Virus record (IMG/VR): IMGVR_UViG_3300021979_000001
Location: 290,948-354,947 of that record
Length of the DNA: 64,000 nt
Source of the DNA: a virus
Taxonomy: Duplodnaviria; Heunggongvirae; Uroviricota; Caudoviricetes
Strand: one strand, 5' to 3'
Part shown: in pieces, positions 6,508 to 61,744 of the stretch
How positions within the stretch are numbered: the stretch's first letter is position 1
Layout: the number at the start of each line of letters is the position of its first letter
Position numbers and translations under genes: made by a program
The notes under the pieces: generated by a model
The model's database searches: none
Told to the model about the DNA's origin: nothing
Seen by the model: only the letters and a program-made list of their open reading frames with translations

Positions 6508-7116
6508 CTATAGTTTCGAAATATCCAGACGGTCATAATCATCTATCGTCAATTCGGATGATCCAAGTTTTTTAACCGATCTGATGATTTTCGGGTTTAA
6601 AACAACGATTACGTGTGATGATCCCATGAAATAATCGTTAACTTTGATGTAATCAATGCCATGTTCGATCAGCCATGTTCTAAAATACAATGAAAACTTT
6701 CCATATAACAGGTTGTCACCACTAACAATATTCAGATAATATATATAAGACATGCTAGCATCATCGTTCAAATTGCGATTGTTAAATTCCAACATATATT
6801 TTTTGTAATAAGTTTTTTTGTATTTCTTAATGAAATCAATAAAATCACGAACCGGTATTTTATTTGTTTCAGATTTGAATGAAGCATCAATATATACTTC
6901 ATATAATGCACGGGAACCTTTGCTATATTGTTTGGCAATTTCTAGTGAATCGGTCAAATATAATCCTGGCCCCAATGCGGCATTATTTTTTTTACTTGGT
7001 TTCATTTCATAGAATGTATGTTCAAGACCCTTTCCCCCGTGCCATAGTTTAACCCAATTGGCTTTATCACTATCATCAAATTCACGCAAAAAATTGGCAA
7101 CGTCTCTATTACTCAT
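6508..7116 (-). CDS. ADP-ribosyltransferase-fold protein (H-G...G.GLYLT...A..Y)
   Basis: KLWHGG...LGPGLYLTDSLEIAKQYS...GIDYI...VVLNPKII; ATAAATA at 7148-7154(-). Confidence 0.7.
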   Translation of the reverse strand: MSNRDVANFLREFDDSDKANWVKLWHGGKGLEHTFYEMKPSKKNNAALGPGLYLTDSLEIAKQYSKGSRALYEVYIDASFKSETNKIPVRDFIDFIKKYKKTYYKKYMLEFNNRNLNDDASMSYIYYLNIVSGDNLLYGKFSLYFRTWLIEHGIDYIKVNDYFMGSSHVIVVLNPKIIRSVKKLGSSELTIDDYDRLDISKL

Positions 7117-7198
7117 TGTTAATAAACCATTATTATGTATGTATAGATATTTATGATAAAACCATAAATAAAAAGAATAGTTTGAGTATATTTTTAGA

Positions 7199-7669
7199 AT
7201 GGAAATTTTATCACGTTATCGGAAAATTGCACTTGATTTCGATGGAACCTTATTTGACGGCCCAGCAAGTGAATATTTGCAAGAATATGTTGTTGATAAC
7301 CAGGACAAGTCATACGGAATTGTTACATTTCGGGATGACCGAGCATCTGTTATGCGTGATCTTTCTGCAATGGGTCTTTCACCGAACTTATTTGCAACAA
7401 TCATAACAATGCCAAGAAAGATGGCAATTGATTTTGAAGCAGAAACGACGATGCGACGACATGCGGGATTACCGTTATTAGCAACGGTATCATCAGATCA
7501 AATGTTTCCGACTGAACATAAGTATGTCATGTGGAAAGGTTTTGTTTGCATGAAAATTGGAGCATCGGTCTTAATTGACGACCTGCCTTGGGCGGTTAAA
7601 CCTGGATGCACCCGGTTTAATATCGATTATGTTGATGTGGCATCACTAAAAATACCAGCCTATACGTGA
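7199..7669 (+). CDS. HAD-superfamily hydrolase
   Basis: motif I IALDFDGTL, motif II VT, motif IV LIDD. Confidence 0.8.
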   Translation: MEILSRYRKIALDFDGTLFDGPASEYLQEYVVDNQDKSYGIVTFRDDRASVMRDLSAMGLSPNLFATIITMPRKMAIDFEAETTMRRHAGLPLLATVSSDQMFPTEHKYVMWKGFVCMKIGASVLIDDLPWAVKPGCTRFNIDYVDVASLKIPAYT

Positions 7670-11002: not shown

Positions 11003-12178
11003 TTAAACGATGTAATGTGGGACGATTTTTGAATCACTCACGACGATTGGACTGTCATCTTGTTCGCGAATGACCATACCACACGCGGTTTCGCCAACAC
11101 ACCATGATCCAATCACAATATAATGGTTATCAATGTGTGGGACATTAACCCGAGCCTGGTATATATTGCGAGATCGATACCCGGCATCATGACTTTCAAT
11201 CACACCGTCCGGTGACACCATCTTAATATTTGCTCCTTCCCGTGCAAGTATCGGTTTTGCGACATAATTATCCCCCAGTTTGTCTGGGCTGAAATATGCC
11301 GGTAGCAAATTCGGATGATCCGGGAACAAATCCCATAACACTGCCAATATCGCTTTGTTGGATAATAATGCTTTCCAAATTGGTTCCAGGAAACCGATAT
11401 TCGCATTAACGAGAGCATCACCAAATTCTTCGGCAAACATCCATTCCCACGGATATAGCTTATCCAAAAACCGGATCACAATGTCGTCTTGATCAACAAA
11501 TTCACCATCTTCGGTAAGACCGATCATATTAATCGGGACATGCTTAACCTTAATGCCCCCTTGCATGGCAAGTTCCATGTAATATTCAATGTGTTGGCGT
11601 TCTTCTGGTGCATCATGAAATGACGTAAAATGCAAGATAGCCCCTTCTGGCATCAAATCACGAATCCGGGAATACCGATCAATCAATTCTTCGTGTAAAC
11701 TGTTAAATTGATCTGCATCGGGATGCACGTCGTTTTTCCACATCCACTGGATAACACTTGTTTCAATTGCGGTCGTTGGGGTATCACAATTGTATTCAAG
11801 CATCTTTGGTGCGGTTAATTCCGGGCGGGATGGATCGAATAATAAATCAAACCGTCCTTTGATATATGGATCATTTCGTTCCCAGGATTCAATGATCATC
11901 GGGCGAAACTTTTCTGGAATTTCGAAATTATCCATCAAATGAGGATTTTTGACAATGTGGGCAACCGCATCCAAACACCGTTGGTGCAATTCTTCTGTTG
12001 CCGCTTCAATTGTTTCAATTTCCGGTAATGAAAACGAATATGAAACCGTTTCATCCCAATAGCATCCGTCATTCCCAATTTCGGTTGATGGATGAACGCC
12101 GAAAGAATGATAGGTCAAACCTTGATCTTCAACAATTTGAACCCAATCATTTCGGGCCAAATGGGTGTCGCGCTTCAT
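11003..12178 (-). CDS. glutathionylspermidine synthase family ATP-grasp protein (YgiC/YjfC-like)
   Basis: YWDE...RFDL...KMLEYNCDTPT...KLYPWEW...EPIWKALLSNKAIL...KPILAREGANI...GSW. Confidence 0.92.
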   Translation of the reverse strand: MKRDTHLARNDWVQIVEDQGLTYHSFGVHPSTEIGNDGCYWDETVSYSFSLPEIETIEAATEELHQRCLDAVAHIVKNPHLMDNFEIPEKFRPMIIESWERNDPYIKGRFDLLFDPSRPELTAPKMLEYNCDTPTTAIETSVIQWMWKNDVHPDADQFNSLHEELIDRYSRIRDLMPEGAILHFTSFHDAPEERQHIEYYMELAMQGGIKVKHVPINMIGLTEDGEFVDQDDIVIRFLDKLYPWEWMFAEEFGDALVNANIGFLEPIWKALLSNKAILAVLWDLFPDHPNLLPAYFSPDKLGDNYVAKPILAREGANIKMVSPDGVIESHDAGYRSRNIYQARVNVPHIDNHYIVIGSWCVGETACGMVIREQDDSPIVVSDSKIVPHYIV

Positions 12179-12246: not shown

Positions 12247-12738
12247 TTACGCACCAACCGAAAATGATCGTCCAGTTGATCCAAACCCACCACGAGAAAC
12301 TGACCGTGCCCCGGTCACAGGGGTGGTAGCCCGCGAATTGGTTGATGTGAACGTGTTTCCATTCTTACCGAAATACACCGGACTTGATGTATAATAAGAG
12401 GATGAATCGCGTGTCATACGTCCCATCATATAACCCATCCAGATCGGCAAAAACACCGATCCACCACCGGACGATGCCTGCGTTTCACACTTGCCCACAC
12501 CAAATTGGTTTTCGCATTCTTCCTTTTTGGAAAAAGTTGGCGCAGATTTCTGATGTTGTTCCTTTGCTGATGCCATCATATTTTTGCATGTCGCTTCCGG
12601 GTAGTAGTGAGAACAACTGTCCACATCACTAAAGGTGTTTGGTTTCCGGTCATCCTGGCATGCACCCAACGACAACGCGACCAAACTGACCGTGGTGAAC
12701 GTAATAAATTTCATACTTTTTGTTTGTTTCATGATCAT
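12247..12738 (-). CDS. DUF1190 lipoprotein (YgiB-like)
   Basis: lipobox LSLGAC, APTF.KKEECENQFG.GKC, FLP..MGYMMG, terminal SRGGFG; directly upstream of the YgiC-like gene. Confidence 0.85.
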   Translation of the reverse strand: MIMKQTKSMKFITFTTVSLVALSLGACQDDRKPNTFSDVDSCSHYYPEATCKNMMASAKEQHQKSAPTFSKKEECENQFGVGKCETQASSGGGSVFLPIWMGYMMGRMTRDSSSYYTSSPVYFGKNGNTFTSTNSRATTPVTGARSVSRGGFGSTGRSFSVGA

Positions 12739-13905: not shown

Positions 13906-14418
13906 ATGCGCGAACATATCAATATTGTTAAAGGTTTACATAACACCAAATCAACATTGGATGAAAAAAGAGCCAGGCGGTCAAAAAGAAAAACCCGCCG
14001 GAAACAGAAAACCGCGTCGTTGGTGTATCCTTATGTTGGGGCATGGTATGGTTATAATGACGATACCGGGTTTGATGGTGGAGATGTGTCAGAAGACATT
14101 GATGCCAGTGTTATGGGCGTGATTGATGAAGATCGTAACCCAATGCCGGTTTTTTATGGTTCGGATGATTCTGACATCAATGGTTGGTTTTGCAATGATC
14201 GGCAGTTTGCAGTCGAGTGTGGTAGTAATGTGTCATCCCATTATATTAAAATGGCAAAACCCTATGTAATAGAAAATCCTGGCTTGCAACATCCAATGTT
14301 AACCGGGGAAGACCCAGTGCCGATGTTACAGAACCAAGGATATGATGGGATTATTGTAGCGGGGAATGGGTTGATAAATTATTATGTATTTGACAGTTCA
14401 CAAATAATCAACATCTGA
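13906..14418 (+). CDS. degenerate ART-PolyVal-like protein with basic N-terminal segment
   Basis: NPMPVFYGS...WFCNDRQFA...YIKMAKPY...QGYDGIIV...YYVFDSSQI; MREHINIV leader; ATAAATA 13865-13871. Confidence 0.65.
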   Translation: MREHINIVKGLHNTKSTLDEKRARRSKRKTRRKQKTASLVYPYVGAWYGYNDDTGFDGGDVSEDIDASVMGVIDEDRNPMPVFYGSDDSDINGWFCNDRQFAVECGSNVSSHYIKMAKPYVIENPGLQHPMLTGEDPVPMLQNQGYDGIIVAGNGLINYYVFDSSQIINI

Positions 14419-14559
14419 ACTTTGCAATTTTTGCAATACGGTATCGGTATATACACAAAGCCGAAGGCCGGTAACAACCAACCTTCGGCTATTTGGCCCG
14501 TGTCTTCAATACTGTTCGGGTTACAGCTTTATTTTTTTATTTAATAGTTCATTTTATTT

Positions 14560-14589
14560 TTGACATTTGATCCCCGACGAAACTATTAT
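14560..14589 (+). promoter_or_regulatory. sigma70-like promoter pointing into the ORF-free structured region
   Basis: TTGACA-18 nt-TATTAT. Confidence 0.55.
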
Positions 14590-14594
14590 GATCG

Positions 14595-15140
14595 AACATA
14601 CGCATAAGGAGTAACAGGGGCGACTCCACCCCAAAAATTTAGACCAGAAAACGAGACTGGGATAAATGATAGTGCAATCACCAAGCCGTCGATCCCCTCG
14701 ATCAGTAAGGGTGATGGCAGCCGCTTGACAGAAGAATGCGAAAGCCGTTCTGTAAAAAGGCACCACGAAAAAGATGGCAATATGTCTTACAATTTGACAA
14801 ATGCCTGCATGCATCGTCCCCCAATGGCGTAATGCATGTGCTTGATACTTTTAAATCCAATATTTTTATCATAACCGTTTGGTCGCAATAAAATTTACCG
14901 GATTGGCGCTGGATGTGTAATTCCCAGTTACCTTTCTCTTGTAGGTGAAATTGACCGGAGTAGGGCGGCTACACGCTGGTTTCGGGAAACCGCCAGCTTC
15001 ATCTATAAACGATGATCACCGCTAATTGGGTTGGCAATGTGACTCAAGATGTCATATCTCCAATAGTCTCCCCTGTCTAACAAATATTTTTTCCCATGGT
15101 TCTATTACTATGGATAAATTTTTGTTAGACAGGGGGGCTA
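14595..15140 (+). ncRNA. candidate large structured ncRNA (or origin-associated RNA), unassigned
   Basis: no credible ORF; GC-enriched; nested helices GCCGTC/GATGGC, ACAGAA..GC-GAAA-GC..TTCTGT, AGGCA/TGCCT, GCATGCAT/ATGCATGT, GCTGG..CCAGC; long-range AGCCGCTT(14719)/GGGCGGCT(14963); long hairpin 15064-15140. Confidence 0.5.
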
Positions 15141-15415
15141 AAATATTGACGTGATCTAAGATATTGAATCAAACAATAGTTTTAAGATAATTGTTATCAA
15201 ACAATAACATTATTCTTCCAAAATGGCATAACGAGTGATGATAAAATCATTGCGATTTCAAGAGCAATGATTTTAGATAGAACGAGTTAAATGCCTAGTG
15301 GGGAATGAAATGAGTGTTCCCGTAAGGGAATACGAATGAAATTTCACGCTACATAATAATAAAAAACACACAGAAACAATCCATGTGTTTTAATTGGTCT
15401 TTTTTATGGATGTCT

Positions 15416-15838
15416 TTACTCAAAGACAAATTTAATTAGTTCTGCATAATCACCAGGTAATTCAAATCGACTTGATGATTCATCTGAATCAATCCATACT
15501 TCTCTTGCTGTTCGGACCAATGGCAAACATTTCTTCCAAGCCAATTTTATGTCTTCGAGTTTTCCTTCAATCATTAATTCGCGATCAGATCGCCAATTGG
15601 GATGCACTATACGAACCCATCCAGCACTAAACATTGTTGGATAAACTGTTAATGAGTTATTTCCCGTGATTTTTGGAACACCTAATTCCCCAGAATGTTC
15701 TTTAGCCCATGGTATATGCTGTTCTTCTTCTACCGGGTAAATTTTTTGCTCTTTTGCGTTAATCCAGGCACCATATGCTTTTGTGTTGAAGCTATACTCA
15801 AAGAGCAATGACGGATTAAACAATTCATAAATATTCAT
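15416..15838 (-). CDS. hypothetical late protein (MNIYELF..LLFE leader)
   Basis: 140 aa; ATAAATA at 15874-15880(-). Confidence 0.65.
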   Translation of the reverse strand: MNIYELFNPSLLFEYSFNTKAYGAWINAKEQKIYPVEEEQHIPWAKEHSGELGVPKITGNNSLTVYPTMFSAGWVRIVHPNWRSDRELMIEGKLEDIKLAWKKCLPLVRTAREVWIDSDESSSRFELPGDYAELIKFVFE

Positions 15839-17311: not shown

Positions 17312-18517
17312 ATGATTTTTTGTCCTTCTCCCTGGCATTCGATTCTAGTCGATTGGAATGGGGATGTTTCCCCGGATCGCCATTTTGGCACCAAAATCGG
17401 GAATATTTTTGATCAAACTATCCCTGAAATGTGGGGAAGTGACGTGATGCAACGGGTTCGGGCATCAATGTTGAACAACACGTTTCCTGAACAATGCCAT
17501 AGATGTCAATCTAAAGAACAGGCAGTCGGTGCATCCCGTCGCACGTTTTTTCATGACGTATTGGTGCCAATGCTGGAACCGGGCTTGAAATATGAAACCA
17601 ATCCAATTCCAGATATTCGATTTGTTGAAATTAATCCAACAAACGTTTGCAACCTTAAATGCAGAATGTGTTCCGGGGAAGATTCAACTGCATGGTTGAA
17701 GGATGAAATGGCTCTTATTTCACAAGGGCTGGATTTTCGTTTCAATTCCAAACTTGGGTATCGGAAAGCACCAAAGGGATTGTTGGATCGATTGTTCTTA
17801 CATCCAGAATGTTTCCGTAATCTACAATATATTAATATCAAAGGTGGTGAGCCATTTAAAGATGAAGAATGCTTTGCACTTATGGAAGCATTGATAGATA
17901 TTGGTGTTTCACACAAAGTTGTTCTTGATTTATCTACTAATGGCACGGATGTTGATCACCGAATTTTTGATATTGCCACAAAGTTCAAAGAGGTGAAATT
18001 ACACATTTCCATGGAAGCAACCGGGGAAATGTATCAATATATGCGTGGTGGTGAGCATTTTACGATTGCTGATCTCGAACGAAATGTTGCGGAATTTTCC
18101 AAAATGGAAAACACTCGAATTATTTTTGCAACTGTTTTGTGTGCTTACAATATTTTCGAAATCCCGAGAATTTGGAAATGGTTCAACAATATTCGAAAAG
18201 AAAATCATGAAATTTATTTCACCAATGTCGTTGCTGATCCAAAATATCTAGCACCCGCTGTGATGCCGTTAGAAGCACGTAGAGAGGCATTGGAGGAAAT
18301 TATTGACGCCAATATACCGAACCGCCTACACGAGCCACACGGCCCGATTATGGGGGTTAACGGCATAGTAAATGGTCTTGGAAAAGAAATATTGGATGAT
18401 ACCGAGAGAAAATTGTTATTTTCTCGATTATATGCCTTCACGATTGCATTGGATAAACTTCGTGGTGAAAGTCTTTTATCGGTAGAGCCAAGGTTTAAAA
18501 AATACCTGGTCAAGTGA
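17312..18517 (+). CDS. radical SAM protein with N-terminal SPASM/twitch-like domain
   Basis: CNLKCRMC (CxxxCxxC), GGEP, STNGT; N-terminal FCPSPW...GNI...C.RC. Confidence 0.9.
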   Translation: MIFCPSPWHSILVDWNGDVSPDRHFGTKIGNIFDQTIPEMWGSDVMQRVRASMLNNTFPEQCHRCQSKEQAVGASRRTFFHDVLVPMLEPGLKYETNPIPDIRFVEINPTNVCNLKCRMCSGEDSTAWLKDEMALISQGLDFRFNSKLGYRKAPKGLLDRLFLHPECFRNLQYINIKGGEPFKDEECFALMEALIDIGVSHKVVLDLSTNGTDVDHRIFDIATKFKEVKLHISMEATGEMYQYMRGGEHFTIADLERNVAEFSKMENTRIIFATVLCAYNIFEIPRIWKWFNNIRKENHEIYFTNVVADPKYLAPAVMPLEARREALEEIIDANIPNRLHEPHGPIMGVNGIVNGLGKEILDDTERKLLFSRLYAFTIALDKLRGESLLSVEPRFKKYLVK

Positions 18518-27473: not shown

Positions 27474-28265
27474 TTGATAGCGGGTAGATTGATCGCAATG
27501 GCAAGTAGTTTCAATGACAACATAATCCAACGTAGATTGCTGAAAAAATATTTTAGTGATTTTGGGATCACATTGAGTCGTGACAGACCACTCGATAACA
27601 TCATGATCAAAATGATTAGTGCGGTCTACGCTGATAAAATGAAAACATTTCCATTTGACGTTGATATATACGAAAGTAAAAATTATGATATGCAATCGGA
27701 TGACATCGATCTGTTGCTGAAATGGGTCCAGTCGGATGATTTGAGTTTGCCTAATGGTAAGGTGAAACTTAACGAAGTTTGTATGACAAACTGGGAATGT
27801 AATATTAAGTTATTTAATGCCACCGTTAATGATATACCAAGCATGGTTTATAATGCGGTGGTTAGTTCGGTATATTTTCACGTAAATTATTCGTTAACTC
27901 ATTATATTCAAAAATACGTTATTAATAATAATTTGAAGGCATTAGTAACAAATAGAATAGTATATTGTGATTCTAACAATGCACTTGATCATTTTTGTAT
28001 TAAAGCAAAAGAAACCCATATAATAATAGATGATGTTCCGCATTATACTATCATAATAAAAGATAGGTCGTTGCATAGTTCATATCAACTATATGAAATG
28101 TTATATGATGCAAATTTAACATTTATATCTGCAAATTATTTGGATAATATCGGGTATGAATGTTATGATTTTTTGTCAGATCGATATGATGTCTACATCG
28201 CCGGTGACAGATTATTTTGTAGAACAGAAACGAATGCAGTAATATGCAAACTCCTTTTTGGATAA
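27474..28265 (+). CDS. expanded paralog family protein (short)
   Basis: 263 aa; ends LFCRTETNAVICKLLFG. Confidence 0.65.
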   Translation: MIAGRLIAMASSFNDNIIQRRLLKKYFSDFGITLSRDRPLDNIMIKMISAVYADKMKTFPFDVDIYESKNYDMQSDDIDLLLKWVQSDDLSLPNGKVKLNEVCMTNWECNIKLFNATVNDIPSMVYNAVVSSVYFHVNYSLTHYIQKYVINNNLKALVTNRIVYCDSNNALDHFCIKAKETHIIIDDVPHYTIIIKDRSLHSSYQLYEMLYDANLTFISANYLDNIGYECYDFLSDRYDVYIAGDRLFCRTETNAVICKLLFG

Positions 28266-28277
28266 TAGGCAACATAT

Positions 28278-29285
28278 ATGGATATAATACACACCGAAAC
28301 AGTAGTCGATGGAAAACTTTTTAAAATAGACATACAAACTTATTCATCGAGTAAGAAGTATACGCGGGATATATTATCATTTGAAAAAATTGAGAGAACA
28401 TTATTTAATCAATATTACAAGAATAGTTTGTTATTTCATATATTTTATGAAAATGATCATACTTCATCGATTGTTTCTAACGATAACATAATATATCCTT
28501 GTATGATTAGTTTAAACAATCGACATCATATGTTTGACAATTCAACGTTTCCGCTTAAGTTTGATGATTTTCGTCCTGATATTGGGTATAAATTGTTACC
28601 AGAACATATCGCATATTTGCGAATATGGGCTGTGTTAAAAAATGATATGGATAATGATTGGCAATTTGTTGATCCATTACAAACCCCTATGGAACAGGTA
28701 ACAATAACCGAGTATGTTCCCGAATGTGGTTTGCTTAATATGTCCGATAATTATCGCCTGGCGGGCGACTGGTTTAATGATGAAGTTCTTAATTCTGTTA
28801 TCAAATTGCCGAATACATTAATAATGGGAAGTGCGATAAACGATGACAAAAACATATTTTTTATGGCAATTGATAAGTTTGCCAGGAAGAATAAAATTAA
28901 AATTATTCATCATGACCATCAATTTATTCTTAATAATAATAGCGAAAAAGATTTAATAACAATTATTACCAGACAGTGGAAATCAATAGAGAGAATAGAA
29001 AAGAAATTATCCAAACAATCATGGTGTTTTTCACGGAAAAATATTAAAATAAAGGATATAAAAGATAAGTTGAACGTTTTAAATGAGGTGAACATTAATT
29101 ATTATTATTTGGCATATGAATCGAATACATATGCACATATGATATTTGGTTATTATCCAGTAATATCTGAAAAGATTAAAAATGCTGATATTGTGTTGTT
29201 TGATAACGGGAACAGTGTTAACATTCGAATTCGCGATGCCGAAACGGCAGTAATGATAAAATTAACCATGCAGGAAATATTATGA
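28278..29285 (+). CDS. expanded paralog family protein
   Basis: 335 aa; IDKFARKNKIKII; ends IRDAETAVMIKL. Confidence 0.75.
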   Translation: MDIIHTETVVDGKLFKIDIQTYSSSKKYTRDILSFEKIERTLFNQYYKNSLLFHIFYENDHTSSIVSNDNIIYPCMISLNNRHHMFDNSTFPLKFDDFRPDIGYKLLPEHIAYLRIWAVLKNDMDNDWQFVDPLQTPMEQVTITEYVPECGLLNMSDNYRLAGDWFNDEVLNSVIKLPNTLIMGSAINDDKNIFFMAIDKFARKNKIKIIHHDHQFILNNNSEKDLITIITRQWKSIERIEKKLSKQSWCFSRKNIKIKDIKDKLNVLNEVNINYYYLAYESNTYAHMIFGYYPVISEKIKNADIVLFDNGNSVNIRIRDAETAVMIKLTMQEIL

Positions 29286-30247
29286 CCTATAACCCCAATG
29301 AATTTGTCTTTTTTTTAGATGATACGTATTTTTACGCCGTTATTGTTGATAAAAATGCTGTCATTCTACCACCAAGTATTGATGTGGATCAAAATATTAA
29401 AATGACGAAAGATCATGGTATCGCTGGTCTTCCTTATTATACTGAAAATGCTATATATTTTAAAGATACGGACTGCTACAATAAGAGTTTAATGACGCCG
29501 GTTAACATTATGCGGTTTAAAGCAGATTTTACACGCATACATGACTTTCCGATAAAGTTATTAGATGATGCTGGTGTCAGTTACGATGTATCAGAAGTAA
29601 CAAAAAATGCAATATTTATATGGGTATATCTGTATAATAAACTTACGGAAAATAACACAGTAAAAATATTTTATAAATCAGACGATGGGACAGGAGAAAC
29701 ATATAAACCGGTTATGTCCAGTTTAACCATGGTTAAACGCGATACTAAAATCAAAAATGGTCTATATGAGATTTTACGTTATAATCATTTTGCATTTACT
29801 ATGCCTTATACTAGATCATATGAAAAACGAGAGATATATAATAATTTGCCAGTAACACCGTATAAAATTAATATTACTGATTACTTAGCCGAACCAGTAG
29901 ATGCGCAAAAATCAACATTTGATTATGGACCTAAAAGTAAATTAATGACCGATCAAATGTTTCAGAGCATGGATGAATTTGCCAAGAAAAATGATACAAG
30001 CATTTTCATATATGAAACTGGTGATATTTATTTGGAAAAATCATTATTTTCTGATTTCAAAATGGATATACTTGACAAGTTGTGTGATGTTGAAGATTTA
30101 TCCAATAAAAAAACATGTTATGAAATAAAACATCAAGTAAACAAAACTAAAACTCTAACTAATAGTTTTCCGAAAAAGGTTTTTCTTATAAAGAATGGTA
30201 TCTTAAAAATGGCAAAGTTTGTTCAAGATATTTTCAGAAATATTTAA
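29282..30247 (+). CDS. expanded paralog family protein, frameshifted C-terminus
   Basis: MDEFAKKNDTSIFI..GDIYLE; family-like tail continues in another frame to ~30318. Confidence 0.7.
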   Translation: MTYNPNEFVFFLDDTYFYAVIVDKNAVILPPSIDVDQNIKMTKDHGIAGLPYYTENAIYFKDTDCYNKSLMTPVNIMRFKADFTRIHDFPIKLLDDAGVSYDVSEVTKNAIFIWVYLYNKLTENNTVKIFYKSDDGTGETYKPVMSSLTMVKRDTKIKNGLYEILRYNHFAFTMPYTRSYEKREIYNNLPVTPYKINITDYLAEPVDAQKSTFDYGPKSKLMTDQMFQSMDEFAKKNDTSIFIYETGDIYLEKSLFSDFKMDILDKLCDVEDLSNKKTCYEIKHQVNKTKTLTNSFPKKVFLIKNGILKMAKFVQDIFRNI

Positions 30248-30314
30248 ACACATATGATACCGTTAATATTGTAACGAACTGCAATATTAGTTTAATTAGT
30301 TATACCGGAGTTAT

Positions 30315-31388
30315 TTGATGTTTGACATGGTAACAACAACGTTTCGAGTGTTGATGCAACCGATAAACAAAAAAATTTACGTTGATGTCAAACATACTAA
30401 TATTGATTTTCCGAAAAGTTTATATAATTATTTGAATCAAATAATAATTGATACAACAAAGTATGGAGATATTTTAAATGATGTAATGTATGATCGATAT
30501 GACGAATATTATACCTTAACTCCATTGAAAATTGCTGAATTTCGGCAGCACCCTGGAATACACAAATTTCCAATTGACATCACGAATGAACCAGATGCTT
30601 TTTCTGGTTCATTCAAATCGACTTATGGGTATGAAATATCTGTTAAACAAGCGGCAACTATTATTATATGGAATTTGTTTACCAAGCATATGAAACATTT
30701 TCATTTTGAGTTCATGGATCATACCGCAACTGCTATGAAACAAGTTCATTTTTTTAGACCTGAATGCACAACGAGGTGTTTCTGGGTTCGCAATAGTATG
30801 AAAGAAGCCGCAGGAAATTTTTATTATCCTAAAAATGCGGTCAAAATAAATGCCCAAGATTACGGATGTAATGTATCATTCCGTAATTTCAATGTTTTAG
30901 GTGCTAATAATATAACATTAAACCAGTCGAATGATGTCAGTGATGAACTTAATCAACTATGTGTTGATTTAAATACCCAGATCGTCATAGCAGATGGGTA
31001 TATTCACATGGAAAAGAAATATAAACGGAAAATAATGAACTTAATCAATAATAAATGGATTAAAATTAATGATTTGATAAAACATAATATTCATAACGTC
31101 AATATCAAAGTAACGTATGAAAAATACGATGACGTGTTATCCAAATATGAGGATGTATGGAATGATGGCGATATTGTCAACACACAATTAATACATATTG
31201 ATTATTTAAGTTCACAGAACAAACTAAATCGCATTAATGTGGATTTCATCAAAGCCGTCTTACGTCAGGATAATGATGTGTTGATTTTGGTATACACAAC
31301 ATATTACAATCACAGTTGGAGAAAAAATATTCATTTGTTTTCAAAGAATGAATCCATAATTACTCTTTTAAAAATGAGGCTATTATGA
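30315..31388 (+). CDS. expanded paralog family protein
   Basis: 357 aa; close paralog of 31385; ends LFSKNESIITLLKM. Confidence 0.8.
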   Translation: MMFDMVTTTFRVLMQPINKKIYVDVKHTNIDFPKSLYNYLNQIIIDTTKYGDILNDVMYDRYDEYYTLTPLKIAEFRQHPGIHKFPIDITNEPDAFSGSFKSTYGYEISVKQAATIIIWNLFTKHMKHFHFEFMDHTATAMKQVHFFRPECTTRCFWVRNSMKEAAGNFYYPKNAVKINAQDYGCNVSFRNFNVLGANNITLNQSNDVSDELNQLCVDLNTQIVIADGYIHMEKKYKRKIMNLINNKWIKINDLIKHNIHNVNIKVTYEKYDDVLSKYEDVWNDGDIVNTQLIHIDYLSSQNKLNRINVDFIKAVLRQDNDVLILVYTTYYNHSWRKNIHLFSKNESIITLLKMRLL

Positions 31389-32452
31389 CTAACATGATCG
31401 AATCCCGTATTTTGGTGTCTCTTGATTGTGGTTGGGAACAATATGTCAATGTAAAACATGAACCAATGCAGTTCGATGATGCTTGTTATGATCATTATGG
31501 TCGTTTATCCATTCATTATCTAATTTATGACGAAATCCTGTTGGGGGTTAAATATGACCATTTCGGGGAATGTTATAAAATAACCCCGTATGACGCCATT
31601 AATTTAAAATTGCATCGTGGTAAGTTTCCGTTTCAAATCGATATGGAAACCGATACTTGTCATTACGGTTATAGTATAAGTTGTAACCAGGCCGCAATTA
31701 TTATGGTATGGGATATGTTTGTTCGATATTATAGTGATATTGAATTTCATATAGTCCATGATGTAACGGAACCAATTCGCAGTCACAAATATGTCAAACC
31801 AACCACCATCCCAGGTTGCTATTGGGTTAATAATCATTTTGGCAAGATTGATGGTGGTTTTCATTATCCAAAAAATCCGACCATCATAAACGGGTCAGAT
31901 TATGGATGTTCTATAACATTCGGTATTTGGGAACAAGATGGCCGAAACAATATAACACTTAATAAAAAAAACGAAATCCACGGCCAATTAAATGACCTGG
32001 CGATTAAATTGAATACGCCAATTACCATCATTGATCAAAATATTCACGTGGAAACACAACATTATGAAACAATATTGAATTTCATTAACACTATTTGGAT
32101 TGAATTAAAATCCTTGGAACAATATAATATCCATACTTTTGCAGTCACATTATCATATGAGGGATATATCGATCTTTCAGAAGAAATAGTTAAAATAAAT
32201 GCAGATGCGGACATTAGTTGTGTTCAGATGACCAATATTATACAAATGAGTAGTGAGTATAACAATAATAGTAATATTAACCGTGATATACTACATCGTG
32301 TTAATAAACATTATATTGATTCTAAGCTGGTAAATGACACTGATTTTTTAATAATATATGGAACAGTGTATTCAGACGCGGTTCACAAACGTGTTTACTT
32401 TTTTTCTAAAAGTGAAGAAGTTATTACATTACTTAAATTGAGGGTATTATGA
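31385..32452 (+). CDS. expanded paralog family protein
   Basis: 355 aa; YGY.IS..QAA.I..W, F.YPKN...IN..DYGC, G.NNITLN shared with 30315; ends FFSKSEEVITLLKL. Confidence 0.8.
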   Translation: MTNMIESRILVSLDCGWEQYVNVKHEPMQFDDACYDHYGRLSIHYLIYDEILLGVKYDHFGECYKITPYDAINLKLHRGKFPFQIDMETDTCHYGYSISCNQAAIIMVWDMFVRYYSDIEFHIVHDVTEPIRSHKYVKPTTIPGCYWVNNHFGKIDGGFHYPKNPTIINGSDYGCSITFGIWEQDGRNNITLNKKNEIHGQLNDLAIKLNTPITIIDQNIHVETQHYETILNFINTIWIELKSLEQYNIHTFAVTLSYEGYIDLSEEIVKINADADISCVQMTNIIQMSSEYNNNSNINRDILHRVNKHYIDSKLVNDTDFLIIYGTVYSDAVHKRVYFFSKSEEVITLLKLRVL

Positions 32453-33519
32453 AACGAACGTTTACATTTATCGTAGATCACAAAAAGTTTATGGTATGTG
32501 TATGTTTTAATACTGATACTCTTATTTTAAATTCGGTAATGATAACTAATCCAGATGATCAGTTTAAAATCGAAATTGACAATGATTGTGATTATAATTT
32601 AGTTACCAATAATAAAATCACACCATATAATATATTATACCGGGAAACAACTTATAATTATCTGCCAGATTTCCCGGTTGAAATACATGATACTATTAAT
32701 ACTATATACGAACTTTCTGAATTAAATGTATGTTGTATATCAATTTGGTCGTATTTACATTATTATCTTGAAACGGATAAAGTGAAATCGATTGAGATAT
32801 ACCAAAATGTAAATGGCACAAACATCCCAATTAATAAAAAACCAGTTTCATATATAACATATGAAAACAAAAATGATTATGGGTTCTATAATATCAATCC
32901 TACCGACAGCGTTGAGGCAATTAAACTCTGTGGCATGTTTCCATCTAATTTACGCATTTTAGATATAATTATGTATATAGACATGGAAATTGAACATGTC
33001 GCGAATGGTAATGATTCAACCGCGTTTCCCACATGGTTCCTTGCCGAAAATTATACCCATGCATTCACCAAGATTTTAGATGATTTTGCCAAGGAAAATA
33101 ACACATTCATTGTGATGCTGTGTGATGCGAAATTATATTGTGATATAAATTTATTTACGGATATTACCCAACTGTTTTTGGATAATTTTAGTGAGCCAGA
33201 AGATATTGCATCTGATTACAATAAATCAAAGAAAAAATCAGATAAAATACTATATCAATTGACATTAGAAAAATCTTATACAAACACTGATGACGTGATT
33301 AATAAACTGGCAGAACTTGGATACCAGTATGAATCCCGTTATATAGAAGATTTTGATATATATCACGCGGGAATATTACCAGCCTTAAAAACAGTTGATG
33401 TTTATGTGATTTCCTTATTAACGCCTACATTATCATCGTCATTACCAGTAGTGCGAAATATCACAATGTTAACGCACGATAGTGAGTTATACACGATGCT
33501 AAAATTAATATATGGGTGA
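32449..33519 (+). CDS. expanded paralog family protein
   Basis: 356 aa; LDDFAKENNTFIV; ends YTMLKLIYG. Confidence 0.75.
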   Translation: MKRTFTFIVDHKKFMVCVCFNTDTLILNSVMITNPDDQFKIEIDNDCDYNLVTNNKITPYNILYRETTYNYLPDFPVEIHDTINTIYELSELNVCCISIWSYLHYYLETDKVKSIEIYQNVNGTNIPINKKPVSYITYENKNDYGFYNINPTDSVEAIKLCGMFPSNLRILDIIMYIDMEIEHVANGNDSTAFPTWFLAENYTHAFTKILDDFAKENNTFIVMLCDAKLYCDINLFTDITQLFLDNFSEPEDIASDYNKSKKKSDKILYQLTLEKSYTNTDDVINKLAELGYQYESRYIEDFDIYHAGILPALKTVDVYVISLLTPTLSSSLPVVRNITMLTHDSELYTMLKLIYG

Positions 33520-33576
33520 TATTGCTGCTGAAATATGCCGATGAAATCCCAGGATCACCATTAAAGGGGCGCAATC

Positions 33577-34569
33577 ATGCCGAAATATCAGTTTTCATTT
33601 AAAAGTGACAACGATGAAATCAAAATAAAGTTATGGTCTAAACAAAATATAGCTAATTACAACAACGATGTGACTAATAAAATATTACCTATAATTAATG
33701 ACATAGAAAACCAATTTGGTATTAGAGTATACTCGTCAAATAATATGATCTATAGTGGGGTAATATCATGTAATGTTATGACGTCGGAAATCACATCAGG
33801 TGTATTACGAATTATAGAATATTATTTTGGGAATGATTTCTGGCCGAAGAAATTAAAAGATAATCCTAATATTTCACATACCCTCACTTTTTATCAAAGC
33901 GTCGAACTTCTTTTTGGTATTATTAACAAATATACTAATGATTATTATAAATTTAAAATACTCAATAAAAAAGAAATTTTAACCGAAAAATATAACTCAA
34001 GTTTTTTACAATCATATCCTACTATTACAATAGAAAATAATAACTTAATACATTATTATTCTGGTCTGCATTTTACTAATCCAGTGCCGTGTTTGAAAAA
34101 TTATACCTTGGTTAATATCCATAGAATATTCACAAACACGTCAAATATATTATTGAGACAAGTGTCACAACAATATAAACAATACTTCTATGATAATGTA
34201 TTAAACTTTGCTAATGATAAAAATACTGAAATATATTGGTTCTGTGATCATATTTTTGTGAAAAATGAATTTGTTGATGATTTTTTGAACATGATTAATA
34301 CCTATTGGGTAACCGAGATTCCTGAACCATGGGTATTTAGTTTTTCAATCACGGGGGAGTCTGCTATTGAAATTAATGAGTATTGCCAAATTATAGAGGA
34401 CTCTGAATTGAAATGCGAAATGATATATAGCTACCTTAGAAGCAATTATTATTATATAGGTAATATACCATCGGATGCAGATGTTCTAATATACAAATGC
34501 ACAAACAGCGTTTATTTTTTTGTAAAAGATGCAGCTACCTGGACATATCTTAAATTGATGGAACGCTGA
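33577..34569 (+). CDS. expanded paralog family protein (EYxFG subgroup)
   Basis: 330 aa; IIEYYFGND; FAND.NTEI...INTYW; ends FFVKDAATWTYLKL. Confidence 0.75.
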   Translation: MPKYQFSFKSDNDEIKIKLWSKQNIANYNNDVTNKILPIINDIENQFGIRVYSSNNMIYSGVISCNVMTSEITSGVLRIIEYYFGNDFWPKKLKDNPNISHTLTFYQSVELLFGIINKYTNDYYKFKILNKKEILTEKYNSSFLQSYPTITIENNNLIHYYSGLHFTNPVPCLKNYTLVNIHRIFTNTSNILLRQVSQQYKQYFYDNVLNFANDKNTEIYWFCDHIFVKNEFVDDFLNMINTYWVTEIPEPWVFSFSITGESAIEINEYCQIIEDSELKCEMIYSYLRSNYYYIGNIPSDADVLIYKCTNSVYFFVKDAATWTYLKLMER

Positions 34570-34653
34570 ATTTAAATCAACGATAAAAATTATGGTTGAC
34601 TGTTTTATGTAATAGTGTATTATTAATCATAACCTTTTACATGGATATGTCAC

Positions 34654-34998
34654 ATGTCAAAATTTACATATGATTACATCGTTGATGAAGCAACCGATAC
34701 GTCTGGGTTGAATAATTCTGAAATCGTTCGGTTTCATATGTTTAATCCGAATGGAATTTTTGAAAAATCCAGTAACCAGCAAGAACAGTTACTTGGTATG
34801 CTTGACCGCAATCAGGTCATGGGCGGGTTCATCGTTGCTAGCGATGATGAATTTTATCGCAAAAGTTTGCGGGATTTGTTAGCAAAGAAACGGGTTAACA
34901 CAATTGAGTTGTCTACAATCATCGAATTATGGGAAAAACATTTGGTTCGGGTTGCCGAAAACATTGCCAAAATTGAAAATCAAAAAAACGACATTTAG
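34654..34998 (+). CDS. hypothetical early protein
   Basis: 114 aa; TTGACT-16-TATTAT at 34596-34623. Confidence 0.65.
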   Translation: MSKFTYDYIVDEATDTSGLNNSEIVRFHMFNPNGIFEKSSNQQEQLLGMLDRNQVMGGFIVASDDEFYRKSLRDLLAKKRVNTIELSTIIELWEKHLVRVAENIAKIENQKNDI

Positions 34999-35006
34999 GT
35001 TAAAAA

Positions 35007-36125
35007 ATGACACGCGGTATAATTCGGTATGGCAGTTATAATATAGTAATGTCGGTGAGGTTTACACCGGATCGTTCGGCAGAACCAATAATTGATACCG
35101 AACAATACCTTATCAAACTTTTTTATAATGCCAGTGTCGAGTATTCCCGAAAATCGGGAATTGACTTTTTGTGCAGTAGCATTAATGCTGGGCAGTCAAC
35201 TGTTGCCCAAAACATGCATTTTTCAACCCGATTATGGTCGCCCACACGTTTTAGGATACTCGAATATTTTTTTGGGGTGAATGTAATTCCGCAGCATGTG
35301 CGAGAAATATCATTTAACTGCGTGCATCTGTGCATGGAAGATCAATTCACTATCTTCGTGAATGTTTTCAACGCGATGACCAATCATGTCTATAATGTCA
35401 TTCCGAACTTCCATAAATACCAATATGGATCACATGAATCACACACAACATCAATGTTCGAACATCAGATCGATAATAAGCCAGGTCTGGTTAGGTGTGT
35501 TGAACTTTCAAAACAGTTTCCGCATATAAAAACGTTATTGGGAATGGCATCAATCAATATTATTGACACATCCACATATGGTTGCATGCCATTACAAACA
35601 ACATTCATAGCATATGATTTTAAATCAAAAAATGTCGTTAATAAATGCAACGATTTAAATTCACGGCATTTACACTCGCGTGATTATGGAATGATTGATG
35701 TTGACAAACAACATGATTTCTATGCTGTTTTGGACAAATATGCAAAATCCCGACAAACACAAATTTTTCTTATTGATTACAATTTGTTTGTTGACCCTGC
35801 TTATGTTGATGAAATAAATGAAATTATCTCAAAACATTGGGGAAAATTGTTTGTGGATAATGATCAATGGGTGTCATTTTGTTGGAAATCACCATCAGAC
35901 GACGATCTGACTAAACTTTGTAATACGCTTGCCGATAATGGAAATAATATTTATGTGATTCTATCAATGCTGCATAAAAAAGGTTATCGGGATAATCAAT
36001 TAAATCTCGATAAGTATGATTTCGTTGTTGTAATTGAATCTAGTGTATCGAATAGTGTAAATACAGATGCGATAATTTATGCCAAAGACGAAATAAATTT
36101 GAGCCTCGCTAAATTATGTTGTTAA
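35007..36125 (+). CDS. expanded paralog family protein (EYFFG subgroup)
   Basis: 372 aa; WSP...LEYFFG.NVIP; ends IYAKDEINLSLAKL. Confidence 0.8.
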   Translation: MTRGIIRYGSYNIVMSVRFTPDRSAEPIIDTEQYLIKLFYNASVEYSRKSGIDFLCSSINAGQSTVAQNMHFSTRLWSPTRFRILEYFFGVNVIPQHVREISFNCVHLCMEDQFTIFVNVFNAMTNHVYNVIPNFHKYQYGSHESHTTSMFEHQIDNKPGLVRCVELSKQFPHIKTLLGMASINIIDTSTYGCMPLQTTFIAYDFKSKNVVNKCNDLNSRHLHSRDYGMIDVDKQHDFYAVLDKYAKSRQTQIFLIDYNLFVDPAYVDEINEIISKHWGKLFVDNDQWVSFCWKSPSDDDLTKLCNTLADNGNNIYVILSMLHKKGYRDNQLNLDKYDFVVVIESSVSNSVNTDAIIYAKDEINLSLAKLCC

Positions 36126-36151
36126 TAACGGACCGGTGAGGACGTGTTATT

Positions 36152-37270: not shown

Positions 37271-37281
37271 CATCAGAAAGA

Positions 37282-37319
37282 ACAAAATAGCCCCAATATT
37301 TAAATTGGGGCTATTTTGT
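37282..37319. terminator. bidirectional intrinsic terminator
   Basis: ACAAAATAGCCCCAAT-loop-ATTGGGGCTATTTTGT between convergent genes. Confidence 0.8.
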
Positions 37320-37332
37320 ATATAGACCGATA

Positions 37333-39692: not shown

Positions 39693-39700
39693 AGATTGTC

Positions 39701-61738: not shown

Positions 61739-61744
61739 ATATAA

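Follow-up and report, generated by a model that had tools for sequence, protein, structure and literature searches.

A structured noncoding RNA of about 545 nt with four diverged copies in one 457-kb phage genome

RESULTS

An ORF-free gap holds a promoter and a noncoding core

The window, meaning the whole 64,000-nt stretch of DNA that was analysed, belongs to the 457,165-bp genome of an uncultured IMG/VR phage whose TerL protein is nearest to that of Agrobacterium phage Atu_ph07. An initial annotation had described a GC-enriched, noncoding, ORF-free gap behind a TTGACA-18-TATTAT promoter, and each part of this description was borne out. The gap runs from the stop of a + strand ORF at 14418 to the end of a - strand ORF at 15416 and contains merely short ORFs, none of them conserved. 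The locus comprises the following features.

14560 to 14589, + strand: sigma-70-type promoter, TTGACA, 18-nt spacer and TATTAT, matching 11 of 12 consensus positions
14596 to 15140, + strand: ncRNA core of about 545 nt, copy A of four paralogs, found with nhmmer and two CMs

The predicted start lies near 14596, 12 nt upstream of the first pseudoknot (PK1). The promoters of the other three copies, also with predicted start sites, are TTGACC-18-TATATT, TTGACT-18-TATATT and TTGACT-16-GATACT, and the promoter lies 12 to 14 nt before PK1 in three copies (A, C and D) and about 28 nt before it in copy B. The GC content of the core was 44%, compared to about 38% for the genome. A protein-coding gene was rejected because no ORF was conserved among the four copies; peptide matches between copies were short and fell in several frames on both strands. 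The core had a minimum free energy of -177.3 kcal/mol, versus -143.3 ± 6.3 kcal/mol in dinucleotide shuffles (z = -5.4), and none of 100 shuffles was as stable. Over the four copies, z ranged from -5.0 to -7.7 on the promoter strand and from -2.6 to -5.5 on the opposite strand, with 19 G-U pairs on the promoter strand.

Four paralogs are dispersed around the genome

Searches with nhmmer detected four copies in this one genome, at 126, 199, 305 and 416 kb, with a mean column identity of about 61%. The four were scored at 91 to 109 bits by a CM of the 3' domain (R1) and at 88 to 94 bits by a CM of the 5' domain (R3), and neither model found any other locus. The copies were dispersed and not tandem, the smallest gap between any two being 72 kb (p of about 0.05 under random circular placement, by our own calculation).

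At all four copies, GC skew was minus over the 10 kb on the left side and plus over the 10 kb on the right; 15% of genome positions show this pattern. Two of the five strongest skew switches coincide with copies A and B, and copy D is 6 kb from a third; other strong switches, at 21.5 and 42.5 kb, had no copy. Since GC skew tracks gene direction in this genome, the skew result is inseparable from a location at divergent promoters. Copies B, C and D are each situated at a divergent gene junction and are co-directional with genes that start 250 to 330 nt past the terminal hairpin (T), with no terminator between, and copy B heads a block of same-strand genes of about 75 kb. No homology was detected among the downstream genes of these three copies. 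Behind copy A there is no co-directional gene, and what follows it locally is a terminator and two convergent genes.

The first 100 to 150 nt after hairpin T had a GC content of 20 to 28% in every copy, and an intrinsic terminator directly 3' of this hairpin was found in none of the four. An RNA I-type antisense regulator was rejected, as no antisense promoter was conserved across the copies; a single site with 10 of 12 matches was detected, in copy B only.

Compensatory changes define a common fold

The initial annotation had proposed a check for covariation among homologues, and the four same-genome paralogs were found to keep about 15 helices, including two pseudoknots, through compensatory changes. 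Automatic clustering of all stems of the four copies was too noisy for use. In this fold, a 5' pseudoknot comes first, then a central domain of several helices and a 3' three-way junction; the second pseudoknot (PK2) locks the latter two domains together, and the long hairpin T ends the RNA.

14608 to 14632, + strand: PK1, a covarying H-type pseudoknot (P1, 14608-14612 with 14623-14627; P2, 14617-14620 with 14629-14632)
14644 to 14660, + strand: P3 hairpin, CCAG/CUGG in A and CCGG/CCGG in B to D, changed on both sides
14682 to 14844, + strand: central domain, closed by P4 (14682-14686 with 14840-14844) and containing P5 to P9 and the invariant AAAAAGGCAC
About 14687 to 14718, + strand: P5, a hairpin of varying sequence within the central domain
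14728-14733 with 14748-14753, + strand: P6, ACAGAA/UUCUGU, CCACA/UGUGG or CGGGG/CCCCG
14776-14779 with 14802-14805, + strand: P7, GUAUAG/CUAUAC, GGAUAG/CUAUCC or GGAUGG/CCAUCC
14783-14786 with 14796-14799, + strand: P8, within the central domain
14807-14814 with 14832-14839, + strand: P9, distinct in sequence in every copy
14820-14825 with 15025-15030, + strand: PK2, a covarying long-range pseudoknot between the P9 loop (CCCAAU) and AUUGGG
14878 to 14959, + strand: P10 domain, in which P10 (14878-14884 with 14953-14959) encloses two or three hairpins whose sequences vary by copy
14965 to 15030, + strand: 3' three-way junction (Px, 14965-14968 with 15019-15022; H1, 14975-14997; H2, 15000-15014), then the 3' strand of PK2
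15064 to 15140, + strand: T, a long terminal hairpin with a C-run against a G-run at its base (CCCCUG.../...CAGGGGGG), followed by A-rich sequence

In PK1, P1 was GGAGU/ACUCC in A, GAAAGU/ACUUUC in B and GGAAGU/ACUUCC in C and D, and P2 was GGGGC/GCCCC in C and GGGGU/ACCCC in D. The closing helix P4 was CAAGC/GCUUG in A and B, CACAAGC/GCUUGUG in C and CCGAG/CUCGG in D, and the choice of the second GCUUG as its partner was favoured by C and D only. The pairing of PK2 changed from CCCAAU/AUUGGG (A) to CUCAAU/AUUGAG (B), ACCAAU/AUUGGU (C) and UUCCA/UGGAA (D), which amounts to two separate double compensations and a shifted register in D. Both pseudoknots are absent from the initial annotation.

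Several helices which that annotation had picked out recurred in all four paralogs with compensatory changes, namely, ACAGAA/TTCTGT (P6), GCATGCAT/ATGCATGT (P9) and the GCTGG..GNRA..CCAGC hairpin (H1), the last with one compensatory pair, in copy C. For GCCGTC/GATGGC, a hairpin was conserved in position but its sequence differed between copies. Two proposals were not conserved. The first, AGGCA/TGCCT, is replaced in B to D by an enclosing helix of the form GRAURG/CYAUYC, and AAGGCAC is invariant without the proposed partner. The second, an 8-bp pairing of 14719-14726 with 14963-14970, is present in A and as 7 bp in B, and its 3' partner is changed without compensation in C and D; this partner instead contributes to Px of the three-way junction, which covaries.

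P10 was UUUGGUC/GACCGGA in A and B, GACCU/AGGUC in C and ACGUGAU/AUCACGU in D, and the hairpins within it were predicted from copy A alone. In the three-way junction, H1 consists of a 5-bp stem, a UUU bulge and CGG-GAAA-CCG. The alignment of this junction (A3) had 83% of its cells paired and 8 of 18 pairs changed on both sides; none of 500 shuffles reached any of these measures, and slid controls paired at 26 to 51%.

Hairpin T was detected in all four copies, with a length of 77 to about 100 nt and G-U pairs on the + strand. The initial annotation had noted it as a 77-nt near-perfect hairpin; its base was conserved in every copy and its apical part varied in sequence while remaining paired. 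A U-tract 3' of the hairpin was present in no copy, and a G6 run at the 3' end of the RNA was conserved.

Invariant unpaired motifs, among them AAAAAGGCAC and UCAUAACCGU, had only ambiguous options for partners within the RNA, such as AAGGCA/UGUCUU and AGCCGCU with a UGGCU motif. Overall, these analyses showed that the region is a gene for a structured ncRNA of about 545 nt with its own sigma-70-type promoter.

Elements downstream of the core

Four further features were located between the core and the - strand gene at 15416-15838.

15141 to 15240, unstranded: AT-rich stretch of 24 to 28% GC, directly after the RNA core
15243 to 15274, + strand: hairpin with 11-bp arms and loop GAUUUCAAGA, also present after copy B (alignment A1)
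15296 to 15351, + strand: element of about 56 nt with two stems, an AGUR/GAA loop-E-like internal loop and a GNRA-capped hairpin
15363 to 15391, listed on the - strand: terminator-like hairpin of 12 pairs with a T-run on the - strand

The AT-rich stretch is a possible DNA unwinding element. In the hairpin at 15243-15274, the apical UCAUUGCGAU.U.AAGAGCAAUGA was conserved and the stem was longer in copy B. The element at 15296-15351 showed compensations in copy B, from GAAAU/AUUUC to GAACCA/UGGUUC, from UUCCC/GGGAA to UUACC/GGUAA and from AGUG/CGCU to GGUG/CGCC; the loop-E label for its internal loop denotes a resemblance of motif only. The hairpin at 15363-15391 would end the - strand gene; on the + strand, UUUUAAUU comes after its reverse complement, so it may terminate transcription in both directions. 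The + strand transcript probably continues past 15140 to this hairpin, which would give a length of about 800 nt.

Comparison with known RNA families

The four copies were examined by cmscan against the 4,227 families of Rfam 15, both at the gathering score and at permissive E values (up to 10). No family reached its threshold at any copy, and the only sub-threshold matches on the core were spurious miRNA-type matches to the long hairpin T, far below gathering scores. GOLLD (RF02032; gathering score, 150 bits) had no match at E values up to 10 in 14300-15500 or at the other copies. A true GOLLD was found elsewhere in the window, at 61833-62286 (177.9 bits), abutting two tRNAs. ROOL (RF03087), HEARO, OLE and raiA had no CM match to the core in Rfam 15. 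The initial annotation had been unable to match the RNA to tmRNA, RNase P or an intron, and this agreed with our searches: ARAGORN detected no tmRNA in the window, the permuted tmRNA of this phage being at genome positions 160209-160554, and RNase P RNA and group I and II introns had no match at E values up to 10, the element being intergenic with its own promoter. The family is catalogued nowhere and represents a further class of large folded phage RNA; the earlier proposal of a new class is supported by the Rfam and ARAGORN negatives together with the covariation in four paralogs.

Searches for relatives

The ncRNA family was found only in this one uncultured genome. A blastn search with copies A, B and C detected no match in 50,697 phage records, and the R1 and R3 domain models had no match in five cultured relatives. 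Five invariant-motif patterns gave only chance matches in IMG/VR, as judged by nhmmer or R1, and one pattern gave only chance matches among those listed in metagenome contigs (at least 120), as did one among those listed in GTDB genome contigs. Relatives of the TerL protein in IMG/VR were limited to four short contigs, all without the RNA; the phage SmpB had no relative in IMG/VR, and a flanking 170-amino-acid protein had no homologue among 5.8 billion proteins.

Rak2-like phages and Atu_ph07 carry multi-copy noncoding elements of their own. The two-copy element of Atu_ph07 reached only 6.3 bits in the comparison with our family. The Rak2-like RNA resembles ours in being present at several dispersed sites in each genome, in its 3' three-way junction, the first hairpin of which has a 5-bp stem, a 3- to 4-nt 5' bulge and CGG-GNRA-CCG, and in a terminal C-run/G-run hairpin followed by GGGGGGAU(G/A)AAA (alignment A6), whereas the 5' halves look unrelated. 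The best R1 match in 24 kb of Rak2-like loci was to the three-way-junction domain of one K64-1 copy, a weak, one-way match (16.4 bits; E = 0.007). Searches with nhmmer detected nothing between the two RNAs in either direction, a reciprocal model built from six Rak2-type copies (R2) matched none of our four, and R1 and R3 found nothing in the whole K64-1 and GAP32 genomes. The related jumbo phage PA5oct, whose TerL is 51% identical, has four ORF-free transcribed regions (ncRNA001 to ncRNA004) of 236 to 619 nt, of which two are very abundant, ncRNA1 and ncRNA2 making up 1.2 to 5% of phage reads (PMC7318152). The PA5oct ncRNAs, unlike ours, are not paralogs of each other, and neither nhmmer nor CM searches linked them to our family.

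DISCUSSION

We tentatively favour the reading that each copy is a cis-acting replication pre-primer, in which features of ColE1 RNA II would be combined with those of T4 R-loop origins, over that of a trans-acting GOLLD/ROOL-like RNA. The location of all four copies at flips of gene direction suggests, but does not prove, that each helps to start DNA copying there. Host RNA polymerase would initiate at the early-type promoter, the conserved fold would display the G-rich 3' end, and the transcript would remain hybridised within the AT-rich, easily melted DNA just past the hairpin. Processing of an RNase H type would then yield a 3' end able to prime leading-strand synthesis, and the four copies would represent four origins of the 457-kb genome. 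The context fits the replication-priming transcript that the initial annotation had offered as its other possibility, with switches of skew and gene direction, a G-run at the 3' end and AT-rich DNA after it. In favour of this reading we count the dispersal, spacing, skew, divergent junctions, AT-rich flank, lack of a terminator after T and the G6 run; against it, the skew switches without a copy, the convergent genes after copy A, the lack of an RNA I-like promoter and the restriction to one genome. Furthermore, a fold this elaborate, locked by pseudoknots, is more characteristic of RNAs that function as folded molecules, such as GOLLD and ROOL, which argues against an origin.

A nearly as probable alternative is a stable, trans-acting 'ornate' RNA of the GOLLD/ROOL kind, serving in an RNA-only assembly or as a ribonucleoprotein scaffold, with the 5' pseudoknot and 3' hairpin protecting its ends. 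Cleavage of the hairpin by RNase III could free the RNA from a read-through transcript, such processing being suggested solely by the length of the duplex. The conservation of two pseudoknots, GNRA loops and invariant unpaired motifs would suit such an RNA, as would the presence of a bona fide GOLLD in the same phage and the abundant ncRNAs expressed by the relative PA5oct (PMC7318152). The absence of a co-directional gene behind copy A also suggests that the RNA is an end product. GOLLD and ROOL are reported to form RNA-only multimers (PMC12286853). Like ours, they are large (about 500 to 800 nt), multi-domain, pseudoknotted and phage-borne. Ours differs in having four dispersed paralogs instead of one copy and in lacking any CM match to GOLLD or ROOL at E values up to 10, and no tRNA gene of the window lies within 6 kb of it, whereas GOLLD here abuts two tRNAs. 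Dispersed copies with about 61% identity are not what is expected for dosage copies of one trans-acting RNA, which usually remain alike; no copy has a terminator after the hairpin, and the link to skew and gene direction would be a coincidence.

Another RNA function, such as that of a ribozyme or of a decoy or sponge directed at host defence or a host factor, appears unlikely. The invariant single-stranded motifs could bind an outside partner, and phage genomes commonly carry counter-defence genes; the RNA has no Rfam ribozyme match at E values up to 10, and no complementary target for the motifs was found within the RNA itself.

Less probable again is a cis-acting leader of early transcription units, with a role in processive antitermination or transcript stabilisation, similar to HK022 put but far larger. 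The co-directional genes behind B, C and D, reached without a terminator, and the long block headed by B are in line with a leader, but these downstream genes share no homology, and the terminator and convergent genes after copy A mean that this copy leads nothing. Known antitermination RNAs are far smaller than about 550 nt with two pseudoknots. A DNA-level element (a protein platform, cruciform, or recombination or packaging site) or a decayed gene is highly improbable: the long inverted repeat and AT-rich flank could serve as DNA and the minus strand also surpassed shuffles, but compensatory pairing in about 15 helices matters only to a single strand, and the 19 G-U pairs, read on the opposite strand, would become A-C mismatches. 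The position of the promoter is also conserved, and the scattered peptide matches between copies, in several frames on both strands, do not suit a decayed gene.

RNAs that are both large and intricately folded are rare, and no job is known for the phage examples, such as GOLLD and ROOL. The layout here is unusual, with four old paralogs that have their own promoters and are scattered at flips of direction and skew, and each has easily melted DNA behind it. Should their position prove important, they would reveal how giant phages arrange the replication or transcription of genomes several times the size of that of T4. If the RNA is trans-acting, four diverged paralogs with one fold offer a natural covariation set for cryo-EM and chemical probing.

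For the pre-primer reading, the closest known systems are those of ColE1 and T4. The RNA II of ColE1 is about 550 nt long and needs both its fold and a G-run for hybrid formation; it is not known to be a Rfam family. RNA II of ColE1/pMB1 shares with our RNA a folded transcript of about 550 nt with its own sigma-70 promoter and a G-run near the functional 3' end with A/T-rich DNA next to it, and a cis-acting role is proposed for ours. Our RNA differs in having two pseudoknots, a phage location, four copies and no conserved RNA I-type promoter.

Phage T4 has at least five early-firing origins, three of which are found where transcription diverges and base composition switches; in oriF and oriG, a promoter is combined with an A+T-rich unwinding element, at which the transcript forms an R-loop that serves as primer, and oriE has an early-type promoter (PMC3016281). 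The T4 origins resemble our copies in being dispersed sites with a promoter and a downstream A+T-rich element at places of divergence and compositional switch. In T4, the unwinding element comes directly after the promoter, the minimal origin is about 100 bp and no folded RNA is needed, whereas about 545 nt of covarying structure lies between promoter and AT-rich stretch in ours; the T4 origins lack a common motif, and our copies are paralogs. It is conceivable, though we regard it as rather doubtful, that the paralogs are RNA-defined origins with pseudoknot-locked pre-primers and that the RNAs of Rak2-like phages and Atu_ph07 are fast-evolving versions of the same device.

Four copies of a structured RNA in one phage genome

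The source record of 457,165 bp, of which the window covers positions 290948-354947, has an IMG/VR completeness rating of 100%. Its large terminase is nearest to that of Agrobacterium phage Atu_ph07 (58.5% identity), followed by those of Sinorhizobium phage Phosso, Pseudomonas phage PA5oct and the Rak2-like phages GAP32 and K64-1. The RNA locus in the window, copy A, lies within 997 nt separating a plus-strand ORF (end, 14418) from a minus-strand ORF (end, 15416), as expected from the ORF-free gap of about 1 kb in the initial annotation. The TTGACA-18-TATTAT promoter described there was located, and the stretch after it had the claimed GC enrichment (44% versus ~38% for the genome). Folding of copy A gave -177.3 kcal/mol versus -143.3 ± 6.3 in dinucleotide shuffles (z, -5.4), with a z of -4.3 for the opposite strand. 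The proposed cmscan comparison with Rfam 15 detected no family at gathering scores and, at E values up to 10, nothing at this locus but miRNA-type hits on the long hairpin. A tmRNA was rejected, as previously suggested, since ARAGORN detected none at this locus; the permuted tmRNA of the phage is at genome positions 160209-160554 (tag, ANDNVASNMAVAA). Two auxiliary metabolic genes lie just upstream of copy A, encoding a glutathionylspermidine synthase (window 11003-12178, minus strand; Pfam E 1e-124) and a DUF1190 protein (12247-12738, minus strand). Window positions 27474-45685 hold ~15 ORFs of 320 to 376 aa, mostly on the plus strand, resembling a tandem paralogous gene family.

A search of the phage's own genome with BLAST and nhmmer yielded three paralogs beyond copy A.

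Copies of the RNA (genome coordinates; all by BLAST and nhmmer)
126602-125917, minus strand, copy D
198826-199547, plus strand, copy C
305488-306346, plus strand, copy A (window locus)
416109-415207, minus strand, copy B

Mean column identity in an alignment of the four copies was 61%. A covariance model of the 3' domain (R1) detected exactly four loci in this genome (91 to 109 bits), and a model of the 5' domain (R3) detected the same four (88 to 94 bits). Folding z scores of the four copies were -5.0 to -7.7 on the promoter strand versus -2.6 to -5.5 on the opposite strand, and the RNA cores of copies B, C and D had no Rfam match. Peptide matches between copies were short (11 to 43 residues) and scattered over several frames and both strands, indicating that the copies share no ORF; a protein-coding reading was rejected, as these matches fit nucleotide conservation and not a common ORF.

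Conserved fold and covariation

Helices were assigned manually in the four copies, and each was verified in all four, in identical order.

Helices of the fold (window coordinates of copy A, plus strand; copies in parentheses)
14608-14612/14623-14627, P1 of the 5' H-type pseudoknot PK1: GGAGU/ACUCC (A), GAAAGU/ACUUUC (B), GGAAGU/ACUUCC (C, D)
14617-14620/14629-14632, P2 of PK1: GGGG/CCCC (A), GGGGC/GUCCC (B), GGGGC/GCCCC (C), GGGGU/ACCCC (D)
14644-14647/14657-14660, P3: CCAG/CUGG (A), UCCGG/CCGGG (B, C), CCGG/CCGG (D)
14682-14686/14840-14844, P4: CAAGC/GCUUG (A, B), CACAAGC/GCUUGUG (C), CCGAG/CUCGG (D)
~14687-14718, P5: hairpin, own sequence in each copy
14728-14733/14748-14753, P6: ACAGAA/UUCUGU (A), CCACA/UGUGG (B, C), CGGGG/CCCCG (D)
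14776-14779/14802-14805, P7: GGCA/UGCC (A), GUAUAG/CUAUAC (B), GGAUAG/CUAUCC (C), GGAUGG/CCAUCC (D)
14783-14786/14796-14799, P8: UGUC/GACA (A-C), UGUC/GAUA (D)
14807-14814/14832-14839, P9: different sequence per copy, 8-9 pairs each
14820-14825/15025-15030, long-range pseudoknot PK2 (P9 loop with 3' region): CCCAAU/AUUGGG (A), CUCAAU/AUUGAG (B), ACCAAU/AUUGGU (C), UUCCA/UGGAA (D)
14878-14884/14953-14959, P10: UUUGGUC/GACCGGA (A, B), GACCU/AGGUC (C), ACGUGAU/AUCACGU (D)
14965-14968/15019-15022, Px, closing the three-way junction: GCGG/CCGC (A), GCGGC/GUCGC (B), GCUAU/GUAGC (C), GUCGC/GUGAC (D)
14975-14997, H1: GCUGG/CCAGC (A, B, D), GUUGG/CCAAC (C); 5' bulge, then CGG-GNRA-CCG
15000-15003/15011-15014, H2: CAUC/GAUG (A), AACCAU/GUGGUU (B), AUCAUC/GGUGAU (C), AAUGC/GCAUU (D)
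15068-15084/15121-15137, T, long terminal hairpin: C-run/G-run base kept, apical part varying by copy

In PK2, double compensation occurred twice independently and the register is shifted in one copy. The inner hairpins of the P10 domain varied among copies. For P4, CAAGC may pair with either the first or the second GCUUG, copies C and D alone pointing to the second. The tabulated helices contain 19 G-U pairs; in the complementary strand these would become A-C mismatches, indicating that the folded strand is the promoter strand. AAAAAGGCAC, UCAUAACCGU, AGCCGCUUG and UGGCUA were invariant. As a control, the three-way junction was evaluated on a plain MAFFT alignment with 500 shuffles and slides of 1 to 3 columns. 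In this alignment 83% of cells were paired, with both-side changes in 8 of 18 pairs, measures reached by none of the shuffles; sliding left only 26 to 51% paired.

Five of the seven structural items in the initial annotation (P5, P6, P9, H1 and T) were recovered, and both pseudoknots had been missed. Its AGGCA/TGCCT helix was not conserved: copies B to D use P7 as the enclosing helix instead, and AAGGCAC there has no such partner. The 8-bp pairing between 14719-14726 and 14963-14970 is found in copy A, shortened to 7 bp in copy B, and is not conserved in C and D, in which the 3' partner is altered without compensation and covaries with the other Px strand. As judged from these comparisons, the element was shown to be a strand-specific, evolutionarily maintained RNA fold with a predicted promoter, present as four paralogs.

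Transcript ends and genomic placement

Predicted promoters and downstream elements
14560-14589, plus strand, promoter of copy A: TTGACA-18-TATTAT (11/12 consensus matches)
Before copy B, promoter-like site: TTGACC-18-TATATT
Before copy C, promoter-like site: TTGACT-18-TATATT
Before copy D, promoter-like site: TTGACT-16-GATACT
15243-15274, plus strand, hairpin with conserved 10-nt loop, kept after copy B with compensatory changes
15296-15351, plus strand, 56-nt element with AGUR/GAA loop-E-like internal loop and GNRA hairpin, kept after copy B with compensatory changes
15363-15391, terminator-like hairpin, putatively bidirectional

The predicted start was 12 to 14 nt ahead of PK1 in copies A, C and D and ~28 nt ahead in copy B, which has an additional small hairpin. 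None of the four copies has a U-tract after T, and the DNA directly following it had a GC content of 20 to 28% over the first 100 to 150 nt in all four. The copy B counterparts of the two downstream elements lie at genome positions ~415230-415340 (minus strand), and neither element had an Rfam match; in copy C, a comparable position is occupied by a GNRA-capped hairpin. Because these elements and the terminator-like hairpin follow the core, the primary transcript of copy A may be ~800 nt. After copies B, C and D, co-directional genes begin 250 to 330 nt past T with no terminator between. The SmpB gene (genome 200082-200510; Pfam E 2.2e-49) begins ~530 nt after copy C.

Copies B, C and D are in divergent junctions, with minus-strand genes to the left and plus-strand genes to the right. 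Copy A is flanked by one plus-strand and two minus-strand genes and, on a 10-kb scale, likewise lies at a minus-to-plus switch. The closest two copies are 72 kb apart. GC skew was negative in the left 10 kb and positive in the right 10 kb of all four, a pattern found at only 15% of genome positions; skew tracks gene direction in this genome and therefore cannot separate replication from transcription. Of the five strongest skew switches, one falls at copy A, another at copy B, and a third lies 6 kb from copy D. Among eight radical-SAM/SPASM paralogs in the genome, three are 0.6 to 4.4 kb from copies D, C and A (genome 127182-128438, genome 203925-205301 and window 17312-18517, plus strand); a rough chance estimate for this proximity was ~0.02, and orientation relative to the RNA was inconsistent.

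Comparable elements in related phages

Covariation was observed among the four same-genome paralogs. Three copies had no blastn match among 50,697 phage records. Five motif patterns in IMG/VR gave only chance matches. The matches listed for one pattern scanned against metagenome contigs and another against GTDB contigs were also due to chance. Neither R1 nor R3 had a hit in the complete Atu_ph07, Phosso, PA5oct, GAP32 and K64-1 genomes; blastn, the matches listed in the motif scans and the model scans together yielded no member outside this phage genome. No paper describing the family was found, and it is absent from every catalogue searched.

K64-1 and GAP32 each have several diverged copies of another structured non-coding family.

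Loci of the Rak2-like family
K64-1, NC_027399.1: ~6860-7384; 191.7-191.9 kb; 279.5-280.0 kb
GAP32, NC_019401.1: ~35.1-35.6, 177.5-178.0 and 261.5-262.0 kb

These loci are annotated in K64-1 as tiny hypothetical ORFs. The closing helix of their 3' three-way junction covaries (UGCGA/UCGCA, UGAGA/UCUCA, AGUGA/UCACU), and, as in our family, the first hairpin of the junction comprises a stem, a 5' bulge and CGG-GNRA-CCG, while the terminal hairpin pairs a C-run with a G-run and precedes GGGGGGAU(G/A)AAA. On 24 kb of Rak2-type loci, the best R1 match was on the 3' junction domain (16.4 bits, E 0.007). Homology is not established, since nhmmer detected nothing in either direction and the reciprocal model from six Rak2-type copies (R2) did not find our four. 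The best, nonsignificant R2 match in our genome (165717-165843, plus strand; 12.4 bits, E 3.2) sits inside another ORF-free gap (165631-166199, 569 nt).

Atu_ph07 has a two-copy non-coding element of ~420 nt (NC_042013.1, 383097-383751, and 489985-490380 plus 1-77; nhmmer E 1.9e-38 between copies), one copy in a divergent junction and the other across the record start. On the minus strand it ends with a long C-run/G-run hairpin similar to ours, after which comes AAUAAAA; model searches gave no support for a relation. In PA5oct, RNA-seq defined four ncRNAs, two of them very abundant (PMC7318152); these have no sequence relation to our family.

Discussion

We favour a position-dependent (cis) role for the four copies, because they are scattered and ancient, and each has diverged on its own where uniform copies could have been maintained. 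They also lie where skew and gene direction switch, no terminator follows the hairpin, and in each the terminal G-run gives way to easily melted DNA. On a tentative reading of this anatomy, each copy would combine an RNA II-like pre-primer with an origin of the T4 type.

A trans-acting folded particle like GOLLD or ROOL, supported by the intricate tertiary fold and by copy A standing alone, is only slightly less probable. The window also contains a bona fide GOLLD RNA at 61833-62286 (minus strand; RF02032, 177.9 bits over the whole model), directly adjoining tRNA-Met and tRNA-Asn (61664-61821), and this phage therefore has two unrelated large structured RNA classes. Some other RNA function is unlikely. 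A cis-acting leader of early operons, weakened by copy A, is more improbable still, and a DNA-level element or decayed gene is barely credible.

The claim of a new large ncRNA class was supported by the lack of an Rfam 15 match at gathering scores and by a fold kept in four paralogs. On the basis of one uncultured genome, the RNA is a predicted new class among the known 'large ornate phage RNAs of unknown function', in which its multi-copy, position-linked layout is unusual. In the pre-primer reading, the promoter, G-run end and easily melted DNA of the four copies would correspond to the parts of an RNA II-like pre-primer and a T4-type origin. At least five T4 origins fire early, and three are located where transcription diverges and base composition switches; the promoter of oriE is an early one, and oriF and oriG consist of a promoter and an A+T-rich unwinding element at which the transcript forms a primer R-loop (PMC3016281).
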